From the NCBI GenBank assembly GCA_964016885.1, contig CAXHJY010001023.1, positions 1-44,186 of the forward strand: a stretch of DNA of 44,186 nucleotides. The letters run 5' to 3'. A program made the translations under genes and the position numbers. The notes under the pieces were generated by a model, which saw nothing but the letters and a program-made list of their open reading frames with translations, searched no databases and was not told where the DNA came from. This DNA comes from Eledone cirrhosa (taxonomy: Eukaryota). Each line of letters opens with the position of its first letter. The first letter of the stretch is position 1. Positions 1,570 to 40,402 of the stretch are shown in pieces.

Positions 1570-3027
<1,458 letters not shown>

Positions 3028-3030
<3 letters not shown>

Positions 3031-3534
3031 TTACAAACGAAACGAAATTTAATTTCGTTTCGTTATTTGTTTTTATCGTCTCCGCTGAACCGGTACGTAC
3101 TCACGCTCTATGCAAATTAGTCTGCCCACTACTAATTTTCATAGAAAAAGCATATAACGATATGTGCTTTTACGATTCTCTAGAAAGGCCGGAAGATAGG
3201 TAAATATTGCTGATGAGATGTAACAACATCGAAACTAGTCCAATATTCCTGTCTGGCTTTCTGGAGAATAGAGGAAAGGTGTTTCCTCGAAAACCAGTAT
3301 GACTCTAAAAACCGGTTTGTCTGTGTGTTTACATACAGAATAGCTGGACACTCACAGTCAAGTGTCCAGTGAAAAACTCGGTACATCTACATATGTACAC
3401 GTGTGTGTATTCATATGCATACTAGTATTTCAGTATACATATGTGGATGTACATTTTTAACTTAATTGTTTAAGCGTCAGTCATACAAAAGTGAGTTACA
3501 AACTAAACGAAATTTAATTTCGTTTCGTTATTTG

Positions 3535-3541
<7 letters not shown>
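3028..3541 (+). mobile_element. Non-LTR retrozyme-like element, subfamily A (465-nt monomer + ~49-nt terminal redundancy)
   Basis: gagttacaaac(g/t)aaacgaaatttaatttcgtttcgttatttgtttttat occurs at 3028 and 3493. One intact HHR inside, many hairpins, non-coding, flanked by (TA)n. Confidence 0.8.
3203..3247 (+). ncRNA. Type I hammerhead ribozyme (canonical core, GUC site)
   Basis: aatattg-CTGATGA-gatgt-aaca-acatc-GAAA-CTAG-TC-caatatt: 7-bp stem I, 5-bp stem II, palindromic minimal stem III (ACTAGT). Confidence 0.93.
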
Positions 3542-5069
<1,528 letters not shown>

Positions 5070-5366
5070 ATAAGTTGAAATAAAATGAAAACGAAATTTC
5101 ATTTCTCACTCTTAGTACGGCACTTACTTAAATGTAAGTATGTGTATATACGTACACACATATATGTATACAGACGTACAGTAGCATGCATATATATATA
5201 TATATATATACATACAGGTACACATACATATATGCACGTATCAGTTTAGAGGACGCTTATTATAACGCCGCTTTGTTCGTTTGTAAACAAACTGAACAGC
5301 CTGAATTTTTATGCCGTACGGTGTTAAGGCAACCACGTCACCTTTTTGTTCAACACTGACACAGGA

Positions 5367-5409
5367 ACGATGTACTAGTTTCAAGCTTGTTAGCTATCAT
5401 CAGCACCGT
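5367..5409 (-). ncRNA. Type I hammerhead ribozyme (GUA site)
   Basis: Minus strand reads acggtg-CTGATGA-t-agct-aaca-agct-t-GAAA-CTAG-TA-catcgt. Confidence 0.9.
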
Positions 5410-5663
5410 ATACCCATCTGCCAGATAGTTGAACGTTCGAAAGTATATACTTTCCTTATGAAAATTAACGGCTTAGCAGCCTAATTTGCATATCGAGTGA
5501 GCTAAGTCGGTCAGGCATACCGAAAACGATAACATACCGAAAACGATAAGTTGAAATAAAATGAAAACGAATTTCATTTCTCACTCTTAGTACGGCACTT
5601 ACTTAAATGTAAGTATGTGTGTATACGTACATACATATATGTATACAGACGTACAGTCGCATG

Positions 5664-5727
<64 letters not shown>

Positions 5728-6093
5728 CAGGTACACATACATATATGCACGTATCAGTTTAGCGGACGCTTATTATAACGCCGCTTTGTTCGTTTGTAAA
5801 CAAACTGAACAGCCTGAATTTTTATGCCGTACGGTGTTAAGGCAACCACGCCATGCATGCTACTGTACGTCTGTATACATATATGTATGTACGTATACAC
5901 ACATACTTACATTTAAGTAAGTGCCGTACTAAGAGTGAGAAATGAAATTTCGTTTTCATTTTATTTCAACTTATCGTTTTCGGTATTCCTGACCGACTTA
6001 GCTCACTCGATATGCAAATTAGGCTGCTCAGCCGTTAATTTTCATACGGAAAGTATATACTTTCTAGCGTTCAACTATCTGGCAGATGGGTAT

Positions 6094-6136
6094 ACGATGC
6101 TGATTATAGCTAACAAGCTTGAAACAAGTACATCGT
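6094..6136 (+). ncRNA. Mutated, probably inactive hammerhead copy
   Basis: acgatg-CTGATTA-tagctaacaagctt-GAAA-CAAG-TA-catcgt: core G8 changed to T and the stem III palindrome is broken. Confidence 0.8.
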
Positions 6137-6287
6137 TCCTGTGTCAGTGTTGAACAAAAAGGTGACGTGGTTGCCTTAACAACGTACGGCATAAAAATCA
6201 GGCTGTTCAGTTTGTTTACAAACGAACAAAGCGGCGTTATAATAAGCGTCCGCTAAACTGATACGTGCATATATGTATGTGTACCTG

Positions 6288-6335
<48 letters not shown>

Positions 6336-6388
6336 TGCTACTGTACGTCTGTATACATATATGTATGTACGTATACACAATACTTACA

Positions 6389-11722
<5,334 letters not shown>

Positions 11723-11856
11723 GTAGATAAATCTACCAAGAGTTTACGGTAGTGTCCAATCCGTATGAAGAACTCAATGTCTTCCGGATATCATGGAAAG
11801 AAGAAATGTAATGAAAAATCACTTTCGGTGAAAGATAAACGGTATACAGAGTCAAG

Positions 11857-11960
11857 ATAAAATATTAAACAAATAATGAATAAACAATTTCTCATATTAA
11901 ACAAAAAATAATGAACTTTTTTTGTTTAATATAAGAAATTGTTTATTCATTATTTGTTTA

Positions 11961-11969
<9 letters not shown>
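11857..11969. repeat. 52-bp near-perfect inverted repeat ending a short unique insert (11723-11969)
   Basis: 11857-11908 is the reverse complement of 11918-11969 with one mismatch. Confidence 0.85.
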
Positions 11970-12036
<67 letters not shown>

Positions 12037-12104
12037 TATGTATAATATATATATATGTATATGTATATATATATATTATATATATGTATATATATAAATA
12101 TATG

Positions 12105-12139
<35 letters not shown>

Positions 12140-12227
12140 GATATAATATATTATATATATGTATATATATATATATTTATATATATGTATATATATATAT
12201 ATACTTATATATATATATATATTTATA

Positions 12228-12284
<57 letters not shown>

Positions 12285-12701
12285 TGTATATATATACTAT
12301 ATATAATATATATGTATATATATATATATATATGTATAATATTATATATATATATATGGTATACTATATATATATATATATATATATACTATATATATAT
12401 ATGTAAATATTTTTAAGTCGTTAGGAAGCCTCGACAATGCAAATGGGTAAATCTCGGGTAACAATGTCCGGTGGTGGAGAGAGTGTTGTAAGTTGAGTGT
12501 GTCTTGTGTGTTGTTTGTGTGTGTTGTTGCCTTGTTCATCTGTATTGGCAGTGTAGTATGTTCGTGTGGTGGAATGCTACTGTGTGTGTGTGCGTGTGTG
12601 TGTGTAGTTGTCTCGTTTGCGTAGTGTGTGTGTGCGTGTGTTGTTGCATCGCTTGTTAACTTAAACCAACCATTTCATTTCGCTTCTCTCTGATCGGTTG
12701 T

Positions 12702-13740
12702 TTATTTGCGGTTGCAGTCGTTTGATAAAAAGCGCTTCCTTGATACGTAACGTGCGACGTTTCTTTCAGTCGCTAGAATTGTGACAATGGGCCTTCCGTC
12801 TTTGTTTCCGCATTTGTCTATATGTTTCCGGAAAGACGAGGCCCTGGTTTTAGTGTGTTCCTTGATCCGGATGTGCAAAGGTCGAATTGTGCTACCTATG
12901 TAGTATTGGTTGCACCTGTCACATTCTATCTTATACACGACGTATGTGCGTAGGCAACAGTTAGCATGGCGTATCGGACAGTCTCTGAGGGAGCATGCGT
13001 CAGTAGAATTTTTCGGGTTTCCTGGAGAGGCATCTTCGCAGGGAGGGGCCCGAGTGGCCAGGTGGATGTCGAGGCCCTCCCTCCGTATAGCCTTGCGGAT
13101 AGCGTTGGTGGTTTTCTCGCCCAGGTGTGGCATTTTAAGGAAGCACTTGCCTTGGGTGCTTCTCTGTCTCTTGCGTCTGGTGTCTCCTATTCTGTCTGTG
13201 ATCGAGATAGGGTACCCGTTCGTCTCCAGCACCTCGAGGAATCGCTTGGTATGAGTGACACCACTCGCGGGATCGCTGCATCTGTTTTTGATTCGCGCGA
13301 TCTCGTTCGTGATGTATCCTCTTTTGGCACTGTTAGGGAGGGCGGACTTGTAGTGAACGAATAGGTCCCTGCAGGCTGCCTTTCTGTAGAAGTTGCAGTG
13401 GATCCCTCCTTGTTCCGTGATGTTGATTCGGAAGTCGAGGAGGGCAAGTGACCCGTCTTCGTTGGGGTGTTCAACACTGAAGTCAATGTTCTCGTCCGTG
13501 CTGTTGAACGTCTCATAGATTCTGTTCGCCGTGTCTTGGGAAGATGTGAGGATGAGGATATCGTCCACGTATCTTGAGAAAAAGGCTACGGCGTTGGGGT
13601 GGCAGGCGTTGAGTGCCTTGCGTTCGAGGTTGTCCATGTAGGAGATCGCTAGCACACCTGATAGGCTTGATCCCATGGGCAATCCCGAGGTTTGTTGGTA
13701 TATTTGGTCAAGGAATCCGAAGTAGGTGTTGTCGACGACG
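12702..13740 (-). pseudogene. PLE reverse transcriptase C-terminal half + GIY-YIG endonuclease (5' truncated)
   Basis: Motifs QQTSGLPMGSSLS, RYVDDI, LALLD and VVYKIECDRCNQYYIGSTIRPLHIRIKEH. The ORF-track N-terminus upstream of ~13740 is inverted-pLTR sequence. Confidence 0.9.
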
Positions 13741-14071
13741 CACACACACACAGTAGCATTCCACCATACGAACATACTACACTGCCAATACAGATGAACA
13801 AGGCAACAACACACACACACAACACACACACTCAAGCGAGACAACAACACACGCACACACACACACAGTAACATTTAACAAACAGGCAGAGAATGGACTG
13901 ACAGCTAGCGCCATCTCACTCCCTCATTCGGCACTGACCTCTGTACGACCAACCCCATTTCACGCGCACGCGCGCTCTGCCGAATACCTCAGATATTCAA
14001 AACAACAAACAGCGAAAGACGCATTCCGGACTTGTCCGACAGACAACCTTTTCCCCCACCCCGGAAAAAAA

Positions 14072-14410: not shown

Positions 14411-14461
14411 AGATTCTACAGGACTAGAACTGTTTCATTCTTTAGAAATCATCAGGAATCT
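14411..14461 (-). ncRNA. Type I hammerhead ribozyme (inverted pLTR copy)
   Basis: Reverse complement of 19243-19293. Confidence 0.88.
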
Positions 14462-14907: not shown

Positions 14908-15064
14908 TATAGTATTTACGTATCGAGAAAGAGAAAAAAAGGGGGGGGATAGGTGATACATATAGTTATTTGCCAAGTAGCGTATGCCAAAGGTGCTCGA
15001 TACTAGTGCCGGCAGTATTAAATATTCGAAGTGTTAATATTTAGTGGGCTAGAGAGTTAGCAGA

Positions 15065-15106
<42 letters not shown>

Positions 15107-15234
15107 GTGTGTGTGGATATTTGTGTGTATATGTTTGTGTGGTTCTCTCTCTGTGTGTGTATTTATTTATTTATTTATTTATTATTTATATATGTGTGTG
15201 TGTGTATACATGTGTATATATGTGTGTGTGTGTC

Positions 15235-15267
<33 letters not shown>

Positions 15268-15295
15268 ATGTATATATGTGTATATGTGTATATAT

Positions 15296-16786
15296 AATGG
15301 AGTGAAACAGGGGGATATTCCAGCACCGACCCTGTTTGCCATATACTTTGCAATGGTTTTCTGTATTGCATTCAGGAATTGCGAGCATGGTGTTTACATC
15401 CGATATCGAACCTCAGGCAGCATATTTAACATCAGGCGCTTTGCTGCGAAGACAAAAGTGTTTACATCAATCATAAGAGACCTCTTGTATGCAGATGATT
15501 GCGATCTTGTAGCGCACACAGAGAGTGATATGCAGCACATTTTGAATGCATTTTCTGACCCTTGCACTGCCCTGGGTTTGACTGTCAGTCTCAAGAAAAC
15601 CGTCGTCATGTACCAACCTGCCCCTAGTAAGCAGTACACTGAACCAAACATCTATGTGTATGGCAAATGACTTGGAGTGGTTGATCAGTTTGTCTATCTG
15701 GGAAGCACTGTCAATCGATACGGCAACCTTGACAGTGAAATCTCACTTAGGATTAGGAAAGCAAGTGATGCTTTCGGAAAGCTAGAAAGGCGACTCTGGG
15801 GTCGGCGAGACATATGCAGGAGGACAAAGGTAAAGGTGTACAGGGCATGTGTACTCTCTTGTCTTCTTTATGCCTGCGAGACCTGGGTCACATATCGACA
15901 CCACCTTAAGCAATTGGAGCGTTTCCATCAGATGTGTCTCAGACGGATCCATGGCGTTCACTGGAGGGACCACATCAGTGATGTCGAGATTTTGGAAAGC
16001 TCTATGTGTGACAGTATAGAAGCTCTTGTGCTTAAGCAACGACTCCGTTGGAGTGGTCACCTTGCCAGGATGAAGGATTCTAGAATACCAAAACAACTCT
16101 TCTATGGAGAGTTGGTTAAAGGAAAACGACCGCCACATAAACCAAAAAAGAGGTATAAGGATTCCTTGAAAGCCTCTCTGAAAGACGCTAACATCTCTGC
16201 TGATACATGGGAAAATATTGCTGCTGATCGTAATAAATGGAGAAAGACTGTATATGAGAGAAAAGTTGCCTTTGAGGCATCTCGAATCGCACACGAGAAA
16301 GTAAAGCGGGACGTGAGGAAGGGCATTGCTGTTGCACTTCCAGACGGCGAGGGTCCTCCTATGGTGCTGACATGCAGCGCCTGTGCGAGACTCTGCCTAA
16401 TCAAAGCTGGACTCGAAAGTCATCTTCGCAGTCATAAAGAAAGACCAGTGGTTGACTACCAGGCTGCTGTTGGAGATGCTACTCATCATGCTTGCCAAAC
16501 ATGTGGTAGAGAATGCAAATCAGCAGGAGGGCTCAAGCGACATGCAAAAGTACACGAGCTCCAACCACAGCCGACTATTCCCAGTGAATGTTTTCGTTTC
16601 CGACTCTGTGCAAGACATTGTAGATCATTGGCTGGGCTAAAAAGCCACATTCGATCGCAGCACTGTTAGTTGTTATCGTGTGTGTGCGTGTGTGTGTGTG
16701 TAGATATGCTTATGTGCGTGCGTGTGTGTGTATATATATATGAATATGTATATTATTATTGTTGTTGTCGTTATTATTATTATTGC

Positions 16787-21770: not shown

Positions 21771-23921
<2,151 letters not shown>

Positions 23922-24023
23922 GAAAATATTCTGTATGTTTATAATAAACATTTTGAAGACCTAATCGCTATAGAATAGAATACGTCACGTATTACAATTA
24001 GATTCTCGATAAAAGCAAGGGAA

Positions 24024-25306
24024 GTAATCTACGCGTTTCATTCTCGTTAGAAATCATCAGGACTACATATCCAGTGCTTTTATCGAGAATGACACAGCTA
24101 GAGACTTATAGAATACTTAGCTGTGTACAGGAACTGGTTTGAAAGAGCGGTTGCCGGTCCGGCAGAAATTAGAAATTGGAATAAATGCTCTGAAATAGCG
24201 ATATATATGTGAATATAGACATAGAATATTCGAAAATATTCTGTATGTTTATAATAAACATTTTGAAGACCTAATCGCTATAGAATAGAATACGTCACGT
24301 ATTACAATTAGATTCTCGATAAAAGCAAGGGAAGTAATCTACGCGTTTCATTCTCGTTAGAAATCATCAGGACTACATATCCAGTGCTTTTATCGAGAAT
24401 GACACAGCTAGAGACTTATAGAATACTTAGCTGTGTACAGGAACTGGTTTGAAAGAGCGGTTGCCGGTCCGGCAGAAATTAGAAATTGGAATAAATGCTC
24501 TGAAATAGCGATATATATGTGAATATAGACATAGAATATTCGAAAATATTCTGTATGTTTATAATAAACATTTTGAAGACCTAATCGCTATAGAATAGAA
24601 TACGTCACGTATTACAATTAGATTCTCGATAAAAGCAAGGGAAGTAATCTACGCGTTTCATTCTCGTTAGAAATCATCAGGACTACATATCCAGTGCTTT
24701 TATCGAGAATGACACAGCTAGAGACTTATAGAATACTTAGCTGTGTACAGGAACTGGTTTGAAAGAGCGGTTGCCGGTCCGGCAGAAATTAGAAATTGGA
24801 ATAAATGCTCTGAAATAGCGATATATATGTGAATATAGACATAGAATATTCGAAAATATTCTGTATGTTTATAATAAACATTTTGAAGACCTAATCGCTA
24901 TAGAATAGAATACGTCACGTATTACAATTAGATTCTCGATAAAAGCAAGGGAAGTAATCTACGCGTTTCATTCTCGTTAGAAATCATCAGGACTACATAT
25001 CCAGTGCTTTTATCGAGAATGACACAGCTAGAGACTTATAGAATACTTAGCTGTGTACAGGAACTGGTTTGAAAGAGCGGTTGCCGGTCCGGCAGAAATT
25101 AGAAATTGGAATAAATGCTCTGAAATAGCGATATATATGTGAATATAGACATAGAATATTCGAAAATATTCTGTATGTTTATAATAAACATTTTGAAGAC
25201 CTAATCGCTATAGAATAGAATACGTCACGTATTACAATTAGATTCTCGATAAAAGCAAGGGAAGTAATCTACGCGTTTCATTCTCGTTAGAAATCATCAG
25301 GACTAC
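24024..25306 (-). ncRNA. Five identical minimal type I hammerheads (24024-24066, 24334-24376, 24644-24686, 24954-24996, 25264-25306)
   Basis: Minus strand reads gtagtc-CTGATGA-t-ttct-aacg-agaa-t-GAAA-CGCG-TA-gattac. Confidence 0.9.
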
Positions 25307-25464
25307 ATATGTCTATATTCACATATATATCGCTATTTCAGAGCATTTATTCCAATTTCTAATTTCTGCCGGACCGGCAACCGCTCTTTCAAACCAGTTC
25401 CTGTACACAGCTAAGTATTCTATAAGTCTCTAGCTGTGTCATTCTCGATAAAAGCACTGGATAT

Positions 25465-25817
25465 GTAGTCCTGATGATTTCTAACGAGAATGAAACGCGT
25501 AGATTACTTCCCTTGCTTTTATCGAGAATCTAATTGTAATACGTGACGTATTCTATTCTATAGCGATTAGGTCTTCAAAATGTTTATTATAAACATACAG
25601 AATATTTTCGAATATTCTATGTCTATATTCACATATATATCGCTATTTCAGAGCATTTATTCCAATTTCTAATTTCTGCCGGACCGGCAACCGCTCTTTC
25701 AAACCAGTTCCTGTACACAGCTAAGTATTCTATAAGTCTCTAGCTGTGTCATTCTCGATAAAAGCACTGGATATGTAGTCCTGATGATTTCTAACGAGAA
25801 TGAAACGCGTAGATTAC
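25465..25817 (+). ncRNA. Two identical minimal type I hammerheads (25465-25507, 25775-25817)
   Basis: gtagtc-CTGATGA-tttctaacgagaat-GAAA-CGCG-TA-gattac, with palindromic stem III ACGCGT. Confidence 0.9.
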
Positions 25818-25974
25818 TTCCCTTGCTTTTATCGAGAATCTAATTGTAATACGTGACGTATTCTATTCTATAGCGATTAGGTCTTCAAAATGTTTATTAT
25901 AAACATACAGAATATTTTCGAATATTCTATGTCTATATTCACATATATATCGCTATTTCAGAGCATTTATTCCA

Positions 25975-26642
<668 letters not shown>

Positions 26643-29601: not shown

Positions 29602-32555
29602 TACTATTTTACTCTTTTACTCTTTTACCTGTTTCAGCCATCCGGCTGAGGCCATGCTGGGGCACCACCCTTGTTGCTACACATTTTATCTCCAGTCTGT
29701 ATAGGTTGGCCACTGGTGTAAGAGGGAGTTTGTTGCTGCTGCCCTTAGGTTTCCCTCGTGTCTTGCTGTGGGCTCATCCGGGATCCTTGATAACAAGGTG
29801 TCGAGATGTTTCTTAAAGACATCCACCTCCACGTCATGTAAGTCTCTCAGATGCCTCGGCAGCCTGTTGAAGTGATGAGGGCCCTTGAATCCAAGGCTAT
29901 TGCAATACCTGCTCCTTATTCTAGATGTGGAAAACGGGACCTTTGGCACCACACAGTGACGTCCTGTTCGACGGTTGGTCCAGCTCCCAATGCCAAAGTT
30001 TGGTGCTAGTCCCTCCAGGATTTTCCACATGTAGATCACTGCGTATCTCTCCCGTCTTCGCTCCAAGGAGTAGAGGTTCAGTTCCTTCAGCCTCTCCCAG
30101 TAGCTTGTCTCCCTCATCTTGGCAATCCTCTTGGTGTAGCTTCGCTGGATTGCCTCAAGCTCCGTGGTTAGTTTGACACTATGGGGTGACCACAACTGGG
30201 AGCACTAGTCCAGGCGGTTTAGGACAAAAGTCCTCCACAGTGTCAACATGGTGTCTCGATATCTTGTCCGCAAAGTCCTCAAGATCCAACCAGCGAGTTG
30301 TCTGCACATTGTCGCCACGTTCATGATGTGTGAAGAAAAAGATGCATCTACGCTCATGTCTATGCCCAGGTCTCGTATCGATTTTGACACGGGGATATCG
30401 GTCCCTCCTGGTCCTGTGTTCCACTATATTTGTGTGTGCAGGTTTGTATTGTAGGGCTTGGAATTTGCCAGCATTAAACTGCATGTTGTTTTCTTCCGCC
30501 CATCTGTATATGGCATCCAGATCCTGCTGTAAAAGGGCAGCGTCAGCCGGGTTTTTGATTGCCTGTGCTACCTTAGTGTCATCAGCATAGCTAGTGAGGC
30601 ATGTTGTTGCATGCACCACAGAGGGCATGTCCGAGAGAGCCACCAAAAACAGTAGCGGTCCCAGGACTGTCCCATGGGGCACCCCACTTGTTATCGGTGT
30701 TTCTCTCGCGAGGGCCCCATTTGCTGCGACTGCCTGGCTTCTGTCCCCTAGGAAGCCATGCAGCCACTCACCTACTTTTCCAGTTATGCCGAGTCCGTGT
30801 AGTTTGTGACATATCATTCCGTGGTCGACCTTGTCAAAGGCCTTCGCAAAGTCAAGATATATCACGTCCACATGTGAGCTGTCTAGTAGTTGTCTCAGTA
30901 CCCAATCGTAGTGATGTAGCAGCTGTGTAAGGCAGCTTCTTCCTGGGCGGAATCCATGTTGCGTGCTAGTCAGGCGGTCATTTTTTTCGAGGAAAGTGAT
31001 TAGTTTCTTTCTGACGACTCGCTCCATGACCTTACTGAGATGCGACGTCAGGGAGACTGGCCTATAGTTCTTGGCCTCCGCTCTACTACCTCCTTTATGG
31101 ATAGGGCATATTGTGCCTTCTTTCAGCTCCCCGGGTAGTACACCGCTAGCAAAGGAGCTTCTGAAGAGCACCTTCAGTGGAGTTGCTAAGGCCCGCTTAC
31201 ATATTTTTAAGAGAACTGCTGGGAATCCATCAGGTCCAGCAGCCGAGTCTGTTCTAATTTCATCAATGGCGTACACCACATCCTCCTCCGTTATGTCTAT
31301 GTGGTTGATGGTTGCCATTTCTTGATGTAGTGTTGTGGCATCAAAGAACTCCTCTGGCTTCGTTATTTGCATGTGCCTCAGTGGACATGTGAAGACACTT
31401 TTGTACTGTTCGTTCAGTATTTCACATATCTCTTAGGCGGTTTTCGGTTAATGAACCGTCCGTGTGGAAGAGTGGCCCAATCTTGCAGTGTACTGAGGCA
31501 GTTTCTTTTGCAAATTTAAAGAAGGCCTTAGGGTTTGTTTTAATGTTTTCTATGGCCCTGTTCTCTTTCTTTGCCCTCTCGTTCTCATGTGAAAGTTTGA
31601 GTGCAATCTCGGTGTCAAGTAGTGCACGTTTCAAATAGGATTCCTTCTTGTTTTTGTTTTGTTGACTATTCAACTGGTTTGAGAGTTTAGTTCTACGTCT
31701 CATAAGGATTTTCCTATCTCTGGGAATAAGATTTTTGTGTCTGTTTGCCTCTTTCTCCGGGACACACTTTTTGCATATAGTGTGTATCGTTGTCATGAAG
31801 TGTTGAAATTGTGTGTTAGTGTCTTGTGTGGCGGCGTTTTTACTCCATGTTTGCTTCCGGATTTCACTCTTAATCTTTTTCCAGTTAGCCTTGTAGAAGT
31901 TAAGGCTGGATAGCGTCCCGGAGCTTCTTGGTGGTTTTGTCTCTATTGGTTCTCTTGGACCACATATCATTAGCTCTGCTAAGTTATGATCCGAGAGAAT
32001 TGTTGGTGTCAGCTTTACATTGTGGATGAGCACTTCGTTGTTTGTAAAACAGAGGTCCAGGACATTTTCGCCTCTTGTTGGGCGAAAACCAACCAAAGGC
32101 CATTTGACCTTTGGTTGGTTGAAGTCTCCCAGCAGTAGGATGTTGAGACCCTGGTCCAGTTTTTCAAGGACCTCTTCTATCCTACTTAGGCTATCCTCAA
32201 ATTTACCCTCATGACTGGGAGCATCGGGCGGCCGATACGTGACACATATCACTGTCTGTAGTTACTTCATATGTATTATCAGTGTGTCACAGACTGAGTT
32301 TGAATGTGTCAACAGTACAATTGGTGTGACATCTTCACGGATATACAGAGAAAACCCACCATGAGTTCTCTCCTTCCTGTCCGAACGAAATACAGTATAT
32401 TTCGGTATATGTATTTCTGCATCTGCTATACTGCTTGTCAGGTGCGTTTCGGTTAGTGCCATGCATAGTGCTTGATTGCTTATGGCTAAGTCTCCCAGGT
32501 AGGAAATTTTACTCATGTTACTGAGTTTCACCAGGCCCCTGACATTCAGCATTAT
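29602..32555 (-). mobile_element. CR1-group LINE ORF2 (APE endonuclease + RT), decayed, with 3' tail (GTAAAAGA)n
   Basis: APE motifs LNVRGL, LTETHL, RSDR, YRPP, GDFN, PTRGENVLDL, SDHN. RT motifs NYRPVSLTS, QHGF, YLDFAKAFDKVDH, SGVPHGTVLGP, YADD. C-terminus YWERLKELNLYSLERRR. Stops, frameshifts and an apparent internal deletion in APE. Confidence 0.9.
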
Positions 32556-34020: not shown

Positions 34021-34180
34021 ATGTATATATATATGTATATATATGTATATATATATATATGTATATATATATGTGTATATATATATGTATATATATATAT
34101 GTATATATATATGTATATATATATATGTATATATATATATATAGAAAGATTTGAATGGATACAGTTTAGTTGAAAGGAAT

Positions 34181-34300
34181 TTATTGACACGTGTTTCTAT
34201 AACAGTTACAGAACCTAAAACAGCTGCTATCTACAAACTTTTAGTTATGCAGACATTCAATATTTCAATGTTATTATTTACTGTCATTTCATCAGAATAA
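34181..34300 (-). ncRNA. Extended-stem-II hammerhead (inverted copy, canonical CTGATGA)
   Basis: Reverse complement of 40018-40137 with few differences. Confidence 0.75.
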
Positions 34301-34862
34301 TATTACTGAGGACCTACTTAGTTTTTATAGAGAATATTAGGAGCGAGGGGTGAAGTTGTTAGAAGAATAGTTGAAGGAGTGGTTTTTCGATAGCAGTGAG
34401 AATTCTTGGTGGCAGTGAGTAATTAGATTCCCATCTGTTGTTTTGACATTTTTTATAGAATATATTATTGGTTATTTTTCTAAATCTATAGAAGGATTAG
34501 AGATAGAAAAGATATGCGTGGTTGGTTTTGTGTTTGCACTTAATTAACATTCAGACTTAAATTTTTCTTTCAAGTGTACGTATCCTTTCACCCACGCATT
34601 CACACACAAATATATTTGCACACCTCTACAAAATACATATACTCACAATTCACATATTCATACTTACATATATATACACATGCATACACATATATATACA
34701 CACATGTATTCATGTACATACATACGCGCTCATGTGTATACATTTTCATACTCAACTTATCTTTATATACACACGTATAGACACACACATATATACATAC
34801 ATACTCTAGTCCATGTGTACACACATACACATACATACACATCTATATACACATATATACAT

Positions 34863-34918
<56 letters not shown>

Positions 34919-35368
34919 ATATATATATATATAAGCACTTTAATACATGAATACACTTACATCTAACTATACACATCAAACATATATATATATATTTACT
35001 TATTTATATACATTTTCACATATATATACATACTTATGGACGTTTTTAGACACATTCATTATCGCATATTTGCACCTATTCTCATCAGCATATCTTTCCA
35101 TTATTAGTGTGGTAATTTAAGGTTATTAATATATGTTGAGAAGAGATTGTTTTTATATTTTTCTAACTAGATTAAGGTTTATATAGTTGGGGGATGTCCC
35201 TCTTTTATGTAATAGTCGGCTTGTAGTGGGAAAAAAGGGTTTTAGATCTGTGACGGCAGAATAATGTTCGTTCAATTCTGTTATTCAGCAGTTTCTTCTT
35301 GTGTGTGATTATGTAATAAATCTCAAGATTACACAATTTGCAAAAATTTTGGCTCCTGGAAAAGCTTT

Positions 35369-37046
35369 ATATCTTAGATAGAATCATCCCCCAAATTAAG
35401 GTTAAGGTTAACATTAAACTCTGGGGGAAGACCCAAGAAGCAATAAGATGGTTTAATAGCATTAGCAATAAGAATAAATCTAAGCTTATCCAGTTTGATA
35501 TCGATGAATATTACTCATCGATATCACCTGAAACTTTGAATAGAGCCATTAAGTTTGCTAAGGATAACTCTGACCTTACAAACGATGAAATTAAGATTAT
35601 ATTAGAAGCTAGGAAAACTATAGTCAAATTTGAGAACAGTTATTGGGTACGTAAAGATAGACCCTCTAACTTTGACATAACAATGGGCTCTAACGATTCG
35701 GCGGAAATAACTGATATTGTGGGGTTATTTATCGCCTTTAGACTCCAGGAAAAATTCAGCAATCTCCACGGCGGAATATACCGCGACGATGTTCTCCTAG
35801 CTAAAAACCTTAATAACCAAAAACTAGAAAAACTACGCAAAGATATAAGAAAACTACTACTCGAAATAGGACTAACTATAACATATGAATACAACCTTAA
35901 AGTAGTTAACTTCCTGGATGTCACACTCAATTTAAACTCTGGTTTGATTAAACCGTTTCATAAATTGAATGAAAATCTCAAATACGTAAATGTTGGGTCT
36001 AACCACCCCATCTCTATAATTAAATCTATCCCTAAAAATATTTCCCTTAGAATCTCGGGTCTATCTTCTAACATACAAGTATTTAAGGAACACACCGAGT
36101 ACTACGATAACGCCCTTAGTAAAGCAGGCTACCTCAACAAAATAGAGTACATAGATGGGAACAATCAAAACACCCAAAATAAATCCCACATAGGTAGATA
36201 TAATAACACAACACCAAACCACACTTACTACCATAGTATGCACATCAGTAAACCAACAAACAAAACTAATAGAAAGCGATGCAAAGAGTACTTATGGTAT
36301 AACCCCGAATACAATAGTTCCATTAGTACAAATTTTCCAGTACTCTTCTTTAAAATAATTAAAAGACATTTTCCCACATCACACAAATACCACAAAATCC
36401 TAATCCCTACCACTATGAGACTGTCATACTCTACAGCGTTAAACCTTGAACAACACATAAAAAAGATCAATACTAGAAGGTTAAACGAAAACACTAAGAA
36501 CTTAAGTACAAAGAACACAAAAAAAAAACAGTAGACAATACACTACAGAACATAAATAAACCACACCTAAGTTCGTCCGCAATACTACTCCAGAGAAAAC
36601 CCAACGTACACAATTGTAACTGCACCTATCCTGACAACTGCCCCCTCGGCAATAACTGCCTGGAAAAAAATATTATTTATAAGTGTACCATTAAATCCGG
36701 AGGCAACGAGTGGTATTACGTGGGATCAACGGCAACATCGTTTAAATCTCGATTATATAGGCATTCTTACTCAATAAAACACCAGAGCCAAAGAAATGTA
36801 ACAACTTTAGCAGAAAAAGCTTGGACGCTCAGGGATAGCGATCAAAAGTTTACCCTAAAATGGGAGAAATTAGCTAAAACCCAAAGCTTTTCCAGGAGCC
36901 AAAATTTCTGCAAATTGTGTAATCTTGAGATTTATTACATAATCACACACAAGAAGAAACTGCTGAATAACAGAATTGAACGAACATTATTCTGCCGTCA
37001 CAGAACTAAAACCCTTTTTTCCCACTACAAGCCGAATATTACATAA
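35369..37046 (+). pseudogene. PLE RT + GIY-YIG, 5' truncated, single frameshift in the A10 run at 36519-36528
   Basis: QFDIDEYY, ITMGSNDSAE, GIYRDD, NFLDVTLNL, WYNPEY. After the shift: CNCTYPDNCPLGNNCLEKNIIYKC...YYVGSTATSFKSRL. Confidence 0.9.
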
Positions 37047-39395: not shown

Positions 39396-39461
<66 letters not shown>

Positions 39462-40017
39462 ATATGTGTATATAGATGTGTATGTATGTGTATGTGTGTA
39501 CACATGGACTAGAGTATGTATGTATATATGTGTGTGTCTATACGTGTGTATATAAAGATAAGTTGAGTATGAAAATGTATACACATGAGCGCGTATGTAT
39601 GTACATGAATACATGTGTGTATATATATGTGTATGCATGTGTATATATATGTAAGTATGAATATGTGAATTGTGAGTATATGTATTTTGTAGAGGTGTGC
39701 AAATATATTTGTGTGTGAATGCGTGGGTGAAAGGATACGTACACTTGAAAGAAAAATTTAAGTCTGAATGTTAATTAAGTGCAAACACAAAACCAACCAC
39801 GCATATCTTTACTATCTCTAATCCTTCTATAGATTTAGAAAATTAACCAATAATATATTCTATAAAAAATGTCAAAACAACAGATGGGAATCTAATTACT
39901 CACTGCCACCAAGAATTCTCACTGCTATCGAAAAACCACTCCTTCAACTATTCTTCTAACAACTTCACCCCTCCCTCCTAATATTCTCTATAAAAACTAA
40001 ATAGGTCCTCAGTAATA

Positions 40018-40137
40018 TTATTCTGATGAAATGACAGTAAATAATAACATTGAAATATTGAATGTCTGCATAACTAAAAGTTTGTAGATAGCAGCTGTTT
40101 TAGGTTATGTAAGTGTTATAGAAACACGTGTCAATAA
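40018..40137 (+). ncRNA. Extended-stem-II hammerhead (canonical CTGATGA, GUC site)
   Basis: ttatt-CTGATGA-aatgac...gttata-GAAA-CACGTG-TC-aataa. Confidence 0.75.
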
Positions 40138-40402
40138 ATTCCTTTCAACTAAACTGTATCCATTCAAATCTTTCTATTTTTCTCCGGATTACTTTTGGAA
40201 CTACAACTGGAACCGTCGAGCAAATTCTACGTGAGCTGATTATCTACTGTGTGTAATATTTATATTACAACACAACGGAAAATACTGTATATATATATAT
40301 ATATGTATATATATGTAATAAATTTATAAATTTAGGAATTTATAAATCTATAAATTTCTGGTTGGTTGGTTGTTTCCACAACCAGATACTTGTTTATATA
40401 TT

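Follow-up and report, generated by a model that had tools for sequence, protein, structure and literature searches.

A tandem hammerhead retrozyme family of Eledone cirrhosa with Penelope-like insertion ends and a probably circular RNA template

The genome of Eledone cirrhosa harbours a family of non-coding hammerhead repeats which we read as a non-LTR retrozyme, copied by the endonuclease and reverse transcriptase of a Penelope-like element (PLE), probably round a circular RNA. Judged by its sequence, the family qualifies as a metazoan non-LTR retrozyme, and as a new one. Two lines of evidence carry this reading, namely the fixed insertion ends, from which mobilisation by a PLE can be stated with high confidence, and the distribution of variants among the tandem units, from which a circular template for the family arrays is favoured with less certainty.

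One copy lies in the window, i.e., the whole analysed stretch of 44,186 nt (Table 1), where it forms an island of 512 nt at 3028-3539 enclosed by a long (TA)n tract. Its terminal segment at 3027-3076 recurs at 3492-3541, offset by 465 nt and with one mismatch (3039 C vs 3504 T); the clear core of this redundancy comprises 47 nt (3028-3074 and 3493-3539), and the overall repeat length is 47-50 nt, its outermost T and AT being ambiguous with the (TA)n flanks. The longest exact repeat inside the element has 35 nt, compared with at most 12 nt in 200 shuffles. The earlier note, which had described one 465-nt unit with a terminal repeat inside (TA)n, has thereby been borne out, and its statement that the repeat is element sequence and no target-site duplication agrees with our mapping to unit positions 466/1-46 of the tandem unit. 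The intact type I hammerhead was likewise placed correctly in the middle of the copy and not at its ends. The figure of 465 nt holds for the window copy and not for the family, in which the usual unit has 466-467 nt; the copy carries a 1-nt deletion common to some other loci, and L043 is its near twin. What has not survived is the redundancy as a sign of a circular template: the overlap of ∼49 nt is the leftover of an insertion consisting of an A arm only, which ended after 1.1 units within the upstream tail, and it is uninformative on the circle, because a linear dimer or longer transcript yields the same form. As modelled, the copy could not release a monomer alone, because it holds a single hammerhead, and taken alone it is an ordinary truncated member of the family.

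Table 1. Features of the window copy and its flanks (window positions).
Feature	Position	Strand
Left (TA)n-rich flank, target; within microsatellite tract spanning 1571-12410	2936..3027	
One-armed insertion (466-nt hammerhead retrozyme family), 1.1 units, 5'-truncated, 3' end at site A (tail-end)	3028..3539	+
5' copy of the redundancy (unit 466/1-46); 5' truncation point inside the tail of the upstream unit	3028..3074	+
Predicted tail hairpin, 13-bp stem; related hairpin before an A-like end in the sister family	3036..3064	+
Predicted hairpin conserved with the sister family; includes ATGCAAAT at 3110-3117	3108..3145	+
Type I hammerhead, minimal palindromic helix III (ACTAGT), predicted cut after 3240	3203..3247	+
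Site B (unit 436-445), second fixed 3' end in the family; internal in the window copy	3467..3470	+
72-nt tail, site B to site A; ends in the 3' copy of the redundancy (47 nt)	3468..3539	+
Right (TA)n flank, target, joined to site A	3540..3600	

The hammerhead has been called on motif and covariation, with 0 matches at the gathering threshold in an Rfam scan. Stem I pairs 3203-3209 with 3241-3247 and stem II pairs 3217-3221 with 3226-3230, around a core with CTGATGA at 3210-3216 and GAAAC-TA-GTC on the 3' side. Among seven family and sister sequences, which are few and related, 6 of 14 base pairs show compensatory change, with covariation in stems I and II, and a large subfamily carries a compensatory swap at one pair of stem II. 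Helix III, a palindrome of two pairs, pairs between two copies in the predicted co-fold; hammerheads with such a short helix III are described as working as dimers in the available text of PMC4209133. The window-type hammerhead is accordingly modelled as likely active in the dimer, and cleavage of the monomer is likely to be slow because helix III is minimal. The whole unit is predicted to be strongly self-paired (z of −9.9 linear and −8.9 circular vs shuffles), and it is non-coding, the longest stop-free frame in six frames comprising 57-60 codons. The sequence ATGCAAAT within the conserved hairpin is presumably the octamer, with a putative promoter role.

In the genome (3.0 Gb), exact matches to the hammerhead core number 1,622, and a variant pattern that excludes the exact core adds 5,261, 99 of the first 100 listed being one variant; the family total thus comes to ∼6,900 hammerhead matches, spread over many contigs. 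The copies consist of units of 463-470 nt in tandem, which are 90-100% alike, with 0.7-22.9 units per position-sampled locus. The analysis has covered 116 loci, of which 55 form a position sample from the first 100 contig C1 matches of each pattern; the end counts leave out L067, L137 and L138 (satellite-like, ends out of view), L139 (empty), arms below 100 nt and overlapping loci. A young 467-nt subfamily (L129, L140-L159) combines a compensatory stem II change with GUU replacing the GUC cut site, and its hammerhead variant is commoner than that of the window subfamily. Long young arrays are uniform, as in L140/141, where ∼23 units show 3 single-unit changes. Block duplications at the DNA level after insertion are visible at L037, L038/39, L059, L075 and L077, and a diverged subfamily (∼90%) at L137, L067 and L138 (contig C1, ∼95.643-95.669 Mb) extends over more than 25 kb as a satellite-like array with ends not reached. 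Because of these duplications and of that array, it is clear that arrays can grow without RNA. Read on the RNA strand, single-unit variants across the family comprise more G>A than C>T changes (52 vs 32, p 0.05), which marginally hints at damage to cytosines of the cDNA strand.

The insertions carry a two-site footprint. In the position sample, the 3' end lies at site A or site B in 91 of 94 arms (A 50, B 41), site A being unit 43-50 and site B unit 435-448, so that the two bracket the 72-nt hairpin-bearing tail. Most insertions consist of two arms joined head to head, one per fixed site and with the tail at one end only; head-to-head pairs are of the A+B kind in 36 of 37 cases in the position sample and in 75 of 79 among all 116 loci, and at the 5' junction of several apparently single arms a few bases from the opposite end are left. 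The 5' ends are scattered round the unit as truncations, with no pile-up at the hammerhead cut (4 observed vs 4.2 expected) and a modest excess in the tail (22 vs 14.5, p 0.044, with a rotated reference). A stronger pile-up in the tail (14 of 50) has been discarded, as it fell to these values on rotating the reference, and 5 of 94 ends at position 330 have been recognized as an artefact of reference rotation. TA-like sequence abuts 169 of 196 ends, and target duplications of ∼11 bp, read by eye, occur at 6 loci with uneven flanks.

This architecture has precedents in PLEs. Two internal start sites around the tail together with two-strand cleavage of AT-rich DNA are reported for one PLE in vitro in the part of PMC11167929 available to us, and partial tandems, an inverted truncated arm and a one-end tail are described for PLE insertions in the corresponding parts of PMC8557442 and PMC3846280. 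In the E. cirrhosa genome itself, two families of coding PLEs likewise end at two fixed points within (TA)n. We are therefore confident that the retrozyme insertions carry a PLE two-site footprint and were mobilised by a PLE. The comparison of start points across copies, which the earlier note had proposed as a check for circular permutation, gives a mixed answer: variation is confined to the 5' ends, and the family copies are thus not freely permuted; the fixed 3' ends nonetheless leave the circle reading standing, because a PLE reverse transcriptase starts at internal sites (PMC11167929, in the part seen).

The same note had set against its own reading that the unit might simply be the pLTR of a coding PLE, and no detectable match to a coding-PLE pLTR has been found in the loci compared. 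In a wider form, in which the unit is a mere solo pLTR or a satellite spread at the DNA level, this explanation could draw on the diverged satellite-like array and on Xenopus retrozymes, which are related to pLTRs according to the portion of 10.64898/2026.07.22.740005 consulted. The repeated unit, however, has no stop-free frame above 60 codons, 45 unpaired arms have no shared upstream body (two adjoin coding PLEs), the pLTR of the adjoining PLE that was checked (L044) shows no similarity to the unit, and neither fixed A/B ends nor inversion nor target duplications are characteristic of satellites; we hold this explanation to be hardly credible. The copies are no autonomous PLE either, with no RT and GIY-YIG ORF between pLTRs, and a plant LTR retrozyme, with a type III hammerhead in LTRs and a 4-bp duplication, has been rejected in view of the type I hammerhead, the tandem units and the ∼11-bp duplication found here.

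A PLE with a pLTR or tail homologous to the retrozyme has been found neither among the window PLEs nor in 30 loci of one PLE family, in 30 of 89 variant-hammerhead loci or in 30 loci of the L238 family. The 89 matches to that variant-hammerhead pattern (control 6) have yielded, in the 30 examined, sister families and no PLE ORF. The window itself holds, at 12400-13874 (−), an abundant PLE with RT and GIY-YIG (21,942 first-look candidates) that ends at two alternative 3' sites in (TA)n at L098 and L108 and shows, at 12705, no similarity to the retrozyme unit; a motif scan of its 3' region has given no hammerhead. A second PLE, full-length and in L238:970-5312 (extending L044), has 534-nt pLTRs, a 107-nt tail and 2,238 candidates, the top matches being 97-99% alike, and its 5' end is joined directly to a retrozyme arm via a 59-nt inverted piece. 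This junction is possibly a template-switch chimera and a lead to the enzyme donor; it does not amount to evidence of a single joint insertion, the PLE ending at its own tailed site and both outer ends being tailed (A+A). In L085:1180-2254 a further PLE ORF leads from its 3' end straight, with no TA gap, into the 5' end of a B arm of 4.4 units that has the same orientation, and in L084:1290-3124 a family arm lies head to head with a sister-family arm, which suggests a shared enzyme or a nested insertion.

Further elements of the window deserve mention. A sister hammerhead family occupies 5070-6390 in inverted arms, with a unit of ∼480 nt that contains a TA run. It has the tail hairpin, the ATGCAAAT hairpin and the ACTAGT helix III in common with the family of the window copy, and L098 displays an A+B architecture of its own. 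At 23890-25976 a 310-bp hammerhead tandem array lies in (TA)n as two inverted arms. Additional hammerhead motifs have been located at 14455, 19249, 27062, 29184, 34295, 40023 and 40441, several of which adjoin PLE-like ORF pieces (19421-, 35320-37046, 40685-). The segments 34141-34916 and 39402-40177 form a 776-nt inverted pair, and broken LINE-like non-LTR RT pieces lie at 15053-16669 (+) and 29686-32261 (−), the second with a Pfam RVT_1 match.

Regarding the template, the cut site is crossed at least twice by 54 of 100 arms, with 1 indel at positions 208-217, which bracket the predicted cut at unit 212/213, in 262 spanning unit pieces, and because of these repeated unscarred crossings a cut linear monomer is excluded as the sole template. 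One might still imagine that hammerhead-cut linear monomers were copied by an enzyme jumping from end to end, on the same or on another monomer and with no covalent circle; this would yield tandem copies and a heterodimer boundary compatible with the cut site, as at L123/124, and the chimeric junctions at L044, L084 and L085 suggest template switching. The single indel among the crossings and the lack of a 5' pile-up at the cut argue against such jumping, as does the finding of one haplotype in most arrays despite many coexisting haplotypes, and we consider it very improbable.

The arrays are in fact uniform to a high degree. Among the A+B insertions, 55 of 75 show no variant limited to some units, i.e., one haplotype extends throughout, and 46 well-covered insertions represent 35 array-wide haplotypes. 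At L048, 161G occurs in 8 of 8 units of both arms, with 3 other matches in the genome on different backgrounds. A parent array for this 161G has been sought and rejected, because all its recurrences lie on different backgrounds; the 297C mosaic locus, itself a period-2 daughter, has been dismissed as a parent as well. Of the insertions with at least 4 units, 16 of 36 are mosaic. Haplotypes switch at L146 between positions 254 and 16, away from the hammerhead cut. The two arms of one insertion need not derive from one RNA, because L143 and L235/236 show periodicity in one arm only; in the latter, 323G recurs every three units of the B arm and in that arm only.

An alternative that has to be weighed at length is a linear, uncut read-through transcript of an array, primed by a PLE at the two sites, with uniform arrays explained by uniform young sources and later DNA duplication. 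Several observations suit it. Hammerhead cleavage is dispensable for insertion of an anole PLE in vitro, uncut RNA being the main substrate, as given in the accessible part of PMC11167929; the minimal helix III makes monomer cleavage likely slow, the window copy needs a linear dimer only, and DNA-level duplications are seen at several loci, so that young arrays could have grown unseen. At L057 and L066, moreover, aperiodic unit-specific variants are common to both arms in the outer register, as a linear multimer predicts, and a few templates do look linear. Against this, 161 single-unit variants have no counterpart in the corresponding unit of the second arm, whereas 13 variants are shared in register (6 insertions), and the 35 haplotypes would require repeated one-unit bottlenecks with long arrays directly after. 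Arm length does not track age either, being uncorrelated with accumulated variation (rho −0.04, n=63). From an edited linear multimer one would further expect an excess of A>G among single-unit changes, which is not present, and the period-2 edited pattern of L123/124 likewise speaks against it. We therefore regard a read-through template as unlikely for the family, and prefer the circular one. The circular-template reading of the earlier note has in this way lost the support of the redundancy and gained that of the family-level variants, i.e., the array-wide haplotypes and the A>G skew.

This skew has been observed on the tip branches of the haplotype network, where 20 of 48 changes are A>G and 7 are T>C, compared with 23 A>G and 27 T>C among 283 single-unit mutations (Fisher p 3e-8); counted by hand by distinct site, the tip-branch changes comprise 15 A>G vs 5 T>C (p 0.025). 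It appears only after polarisation along the spanning tree; a few edges of that tree point the wrong way, and sites recur in it. Measured against a single consensus there is no skew (array-wide 18 A>G vs 18 T>C, private 8 vs 13). The array-wide excess of A>G is suggestive, though not conclusive, of editing at the RNA stage, which we take, from general knowledge, to be ADAR editing. A change made at the RNA stage and found in every unit implies that one RNA unit has been copied repeatedly, in this insertion or in an ancestral one. The most detailed case is the A arm of L123/124, in which two cut-to-cut monomers strictly alternate over 5 units; they correspond to the L065 and L054 haplotypes, each with 5-6 recurring A>G and scattered single changes. 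At this one locus, the monomer boundary falls between positions 178 and 297, a span that includes the cut site, and the outer B arm of L123 is scrambled.

Taken together, these observations may be arranged into a cycle. Tandem arrays would be transcribed (step 1), and adjacent hammerheads would be cut as dimers, after which a host ligase may close 466-nt monomers and sometimes dimers, by analogy with other retrozymes, while adenosines in the hairpins would undergo A-to-I editing, to which the A>G skew points (step 2). In step 3, a PLE protein would make cuts ∼11 nt apart in (TA)n DNA and prime from each strand, one side using site A and the other site B. The insertions show the fixed ends, the A+B pairing, the TA target and the short duplications directly, and the enzyme is what we infer from them. 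Each cDNA would then roll round its template for 0.2 to more than 15 units before the two 5' ends join head to head (step 4), an architecture seen directly in the insertions and for which rolling is the proposed origin. Duplication at the DNA level, of which the block duplications give evidence, would later reshuffle long arrays (step 5). In its full form, the proposal states that the genome retains traces of rolling-circle target-primed reverse transcription, in which a PLE primes both strands of a (TA)n break at two sites on hammerhead-cut, ligated and A-to-I-edited circular RNA (a monomer, or at times a heterodimer derived from two source haplotypes), and that the edits become heritable, array-wide and drive the evolution of the family; to this complete chain we assign about even chances.

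Ever since the newt satellite, the mobility of animal hammerhead repeats has awaited an explanation. Circles have been described in coral, mussel and axolotl, and PLE enzymes have been proposed to copy them into tandem cDNA (PMC7229834, in the text available), while co-occurrence of retrozymes and PLEs and a pLTR phylogeny have been presented by Li, Clavereau and Pollet 2026 (10.64898/2026.07.22.740005, likewise in part). In the accessible parts of both sources, PLE copying of circular RNAs is proposed and undemonstrated. In the present family, the start sites have been mapped, the target and the geometry of the cut are given and young copies exist, so that a direct in vitro test is defined. 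If the circle is true, a retrotransposon enzyme would here be seen to roll round circular RNA in nature, and RNA editing would feed back into the genome. Contigs of unit length (495 and 496 nt) in two of four sequencing runs of unrecorded kind have been set aside, as tandem DNA explains them equally well as a circle. A retrozyme literature search that covered few subscription papers and no supplements has found no fixed two-site ends or array-wide edits.

Compared with known systems, the family agrees with the metazoan non-LTR retrozymes (PMC7229834; 10.64898/2026.07.22.740005), as far as the parts consulted describe them, in a non-coding tandem unit with one type I hammerhead per unit and low GC, a strongly self-paired fold (predicted here), forms from monomers to long multimers, and PLEs in the same genome; with the axolotl and newt type it shares a short palindromic helix III. 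Its unit of 466-467 nt exceeds the 170-400 nt of the 2020 set (PMC7229834) and is covered by the range of 51-972 nt in the 2026 survey. Circles have been detected by northern blot in the retrozymes of PMC7229834, whereas those of the E. cirrhosa family are predicted. Mobilisation by PLEs has been proposed in both retrozyme papers, in the portions of which fixed A/B ends, two-armed insertions and array-wide edits are undescribed. With EN+ PLEs, in the available parts of PMC11167929, PMC8557442 and PMC3846280, the family shares two fixed 3' ends, a one-end tail, an inverted 5'-truncated arm, an AT-rich or (TA)n target, a duplication of ∼8-11 bp and a type I hammerhead; it differs in having no ORF, in a tail of 72 nt vs the usual 30-40 nt (PMC8557442), and in many short units per arm where PLEs show a partial tandem of a long element. 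The Chlamys elements such as MRC1 (PMC8557442, in the same part) are also non-autonomous PLE derivatives with multicopy head-to-tail insertions, but this clade is without canonical hammerheads and has a 3' end resembling that of its autonomous family, a partner of a kind not found for the E. cirrhosa family in the loci compared.
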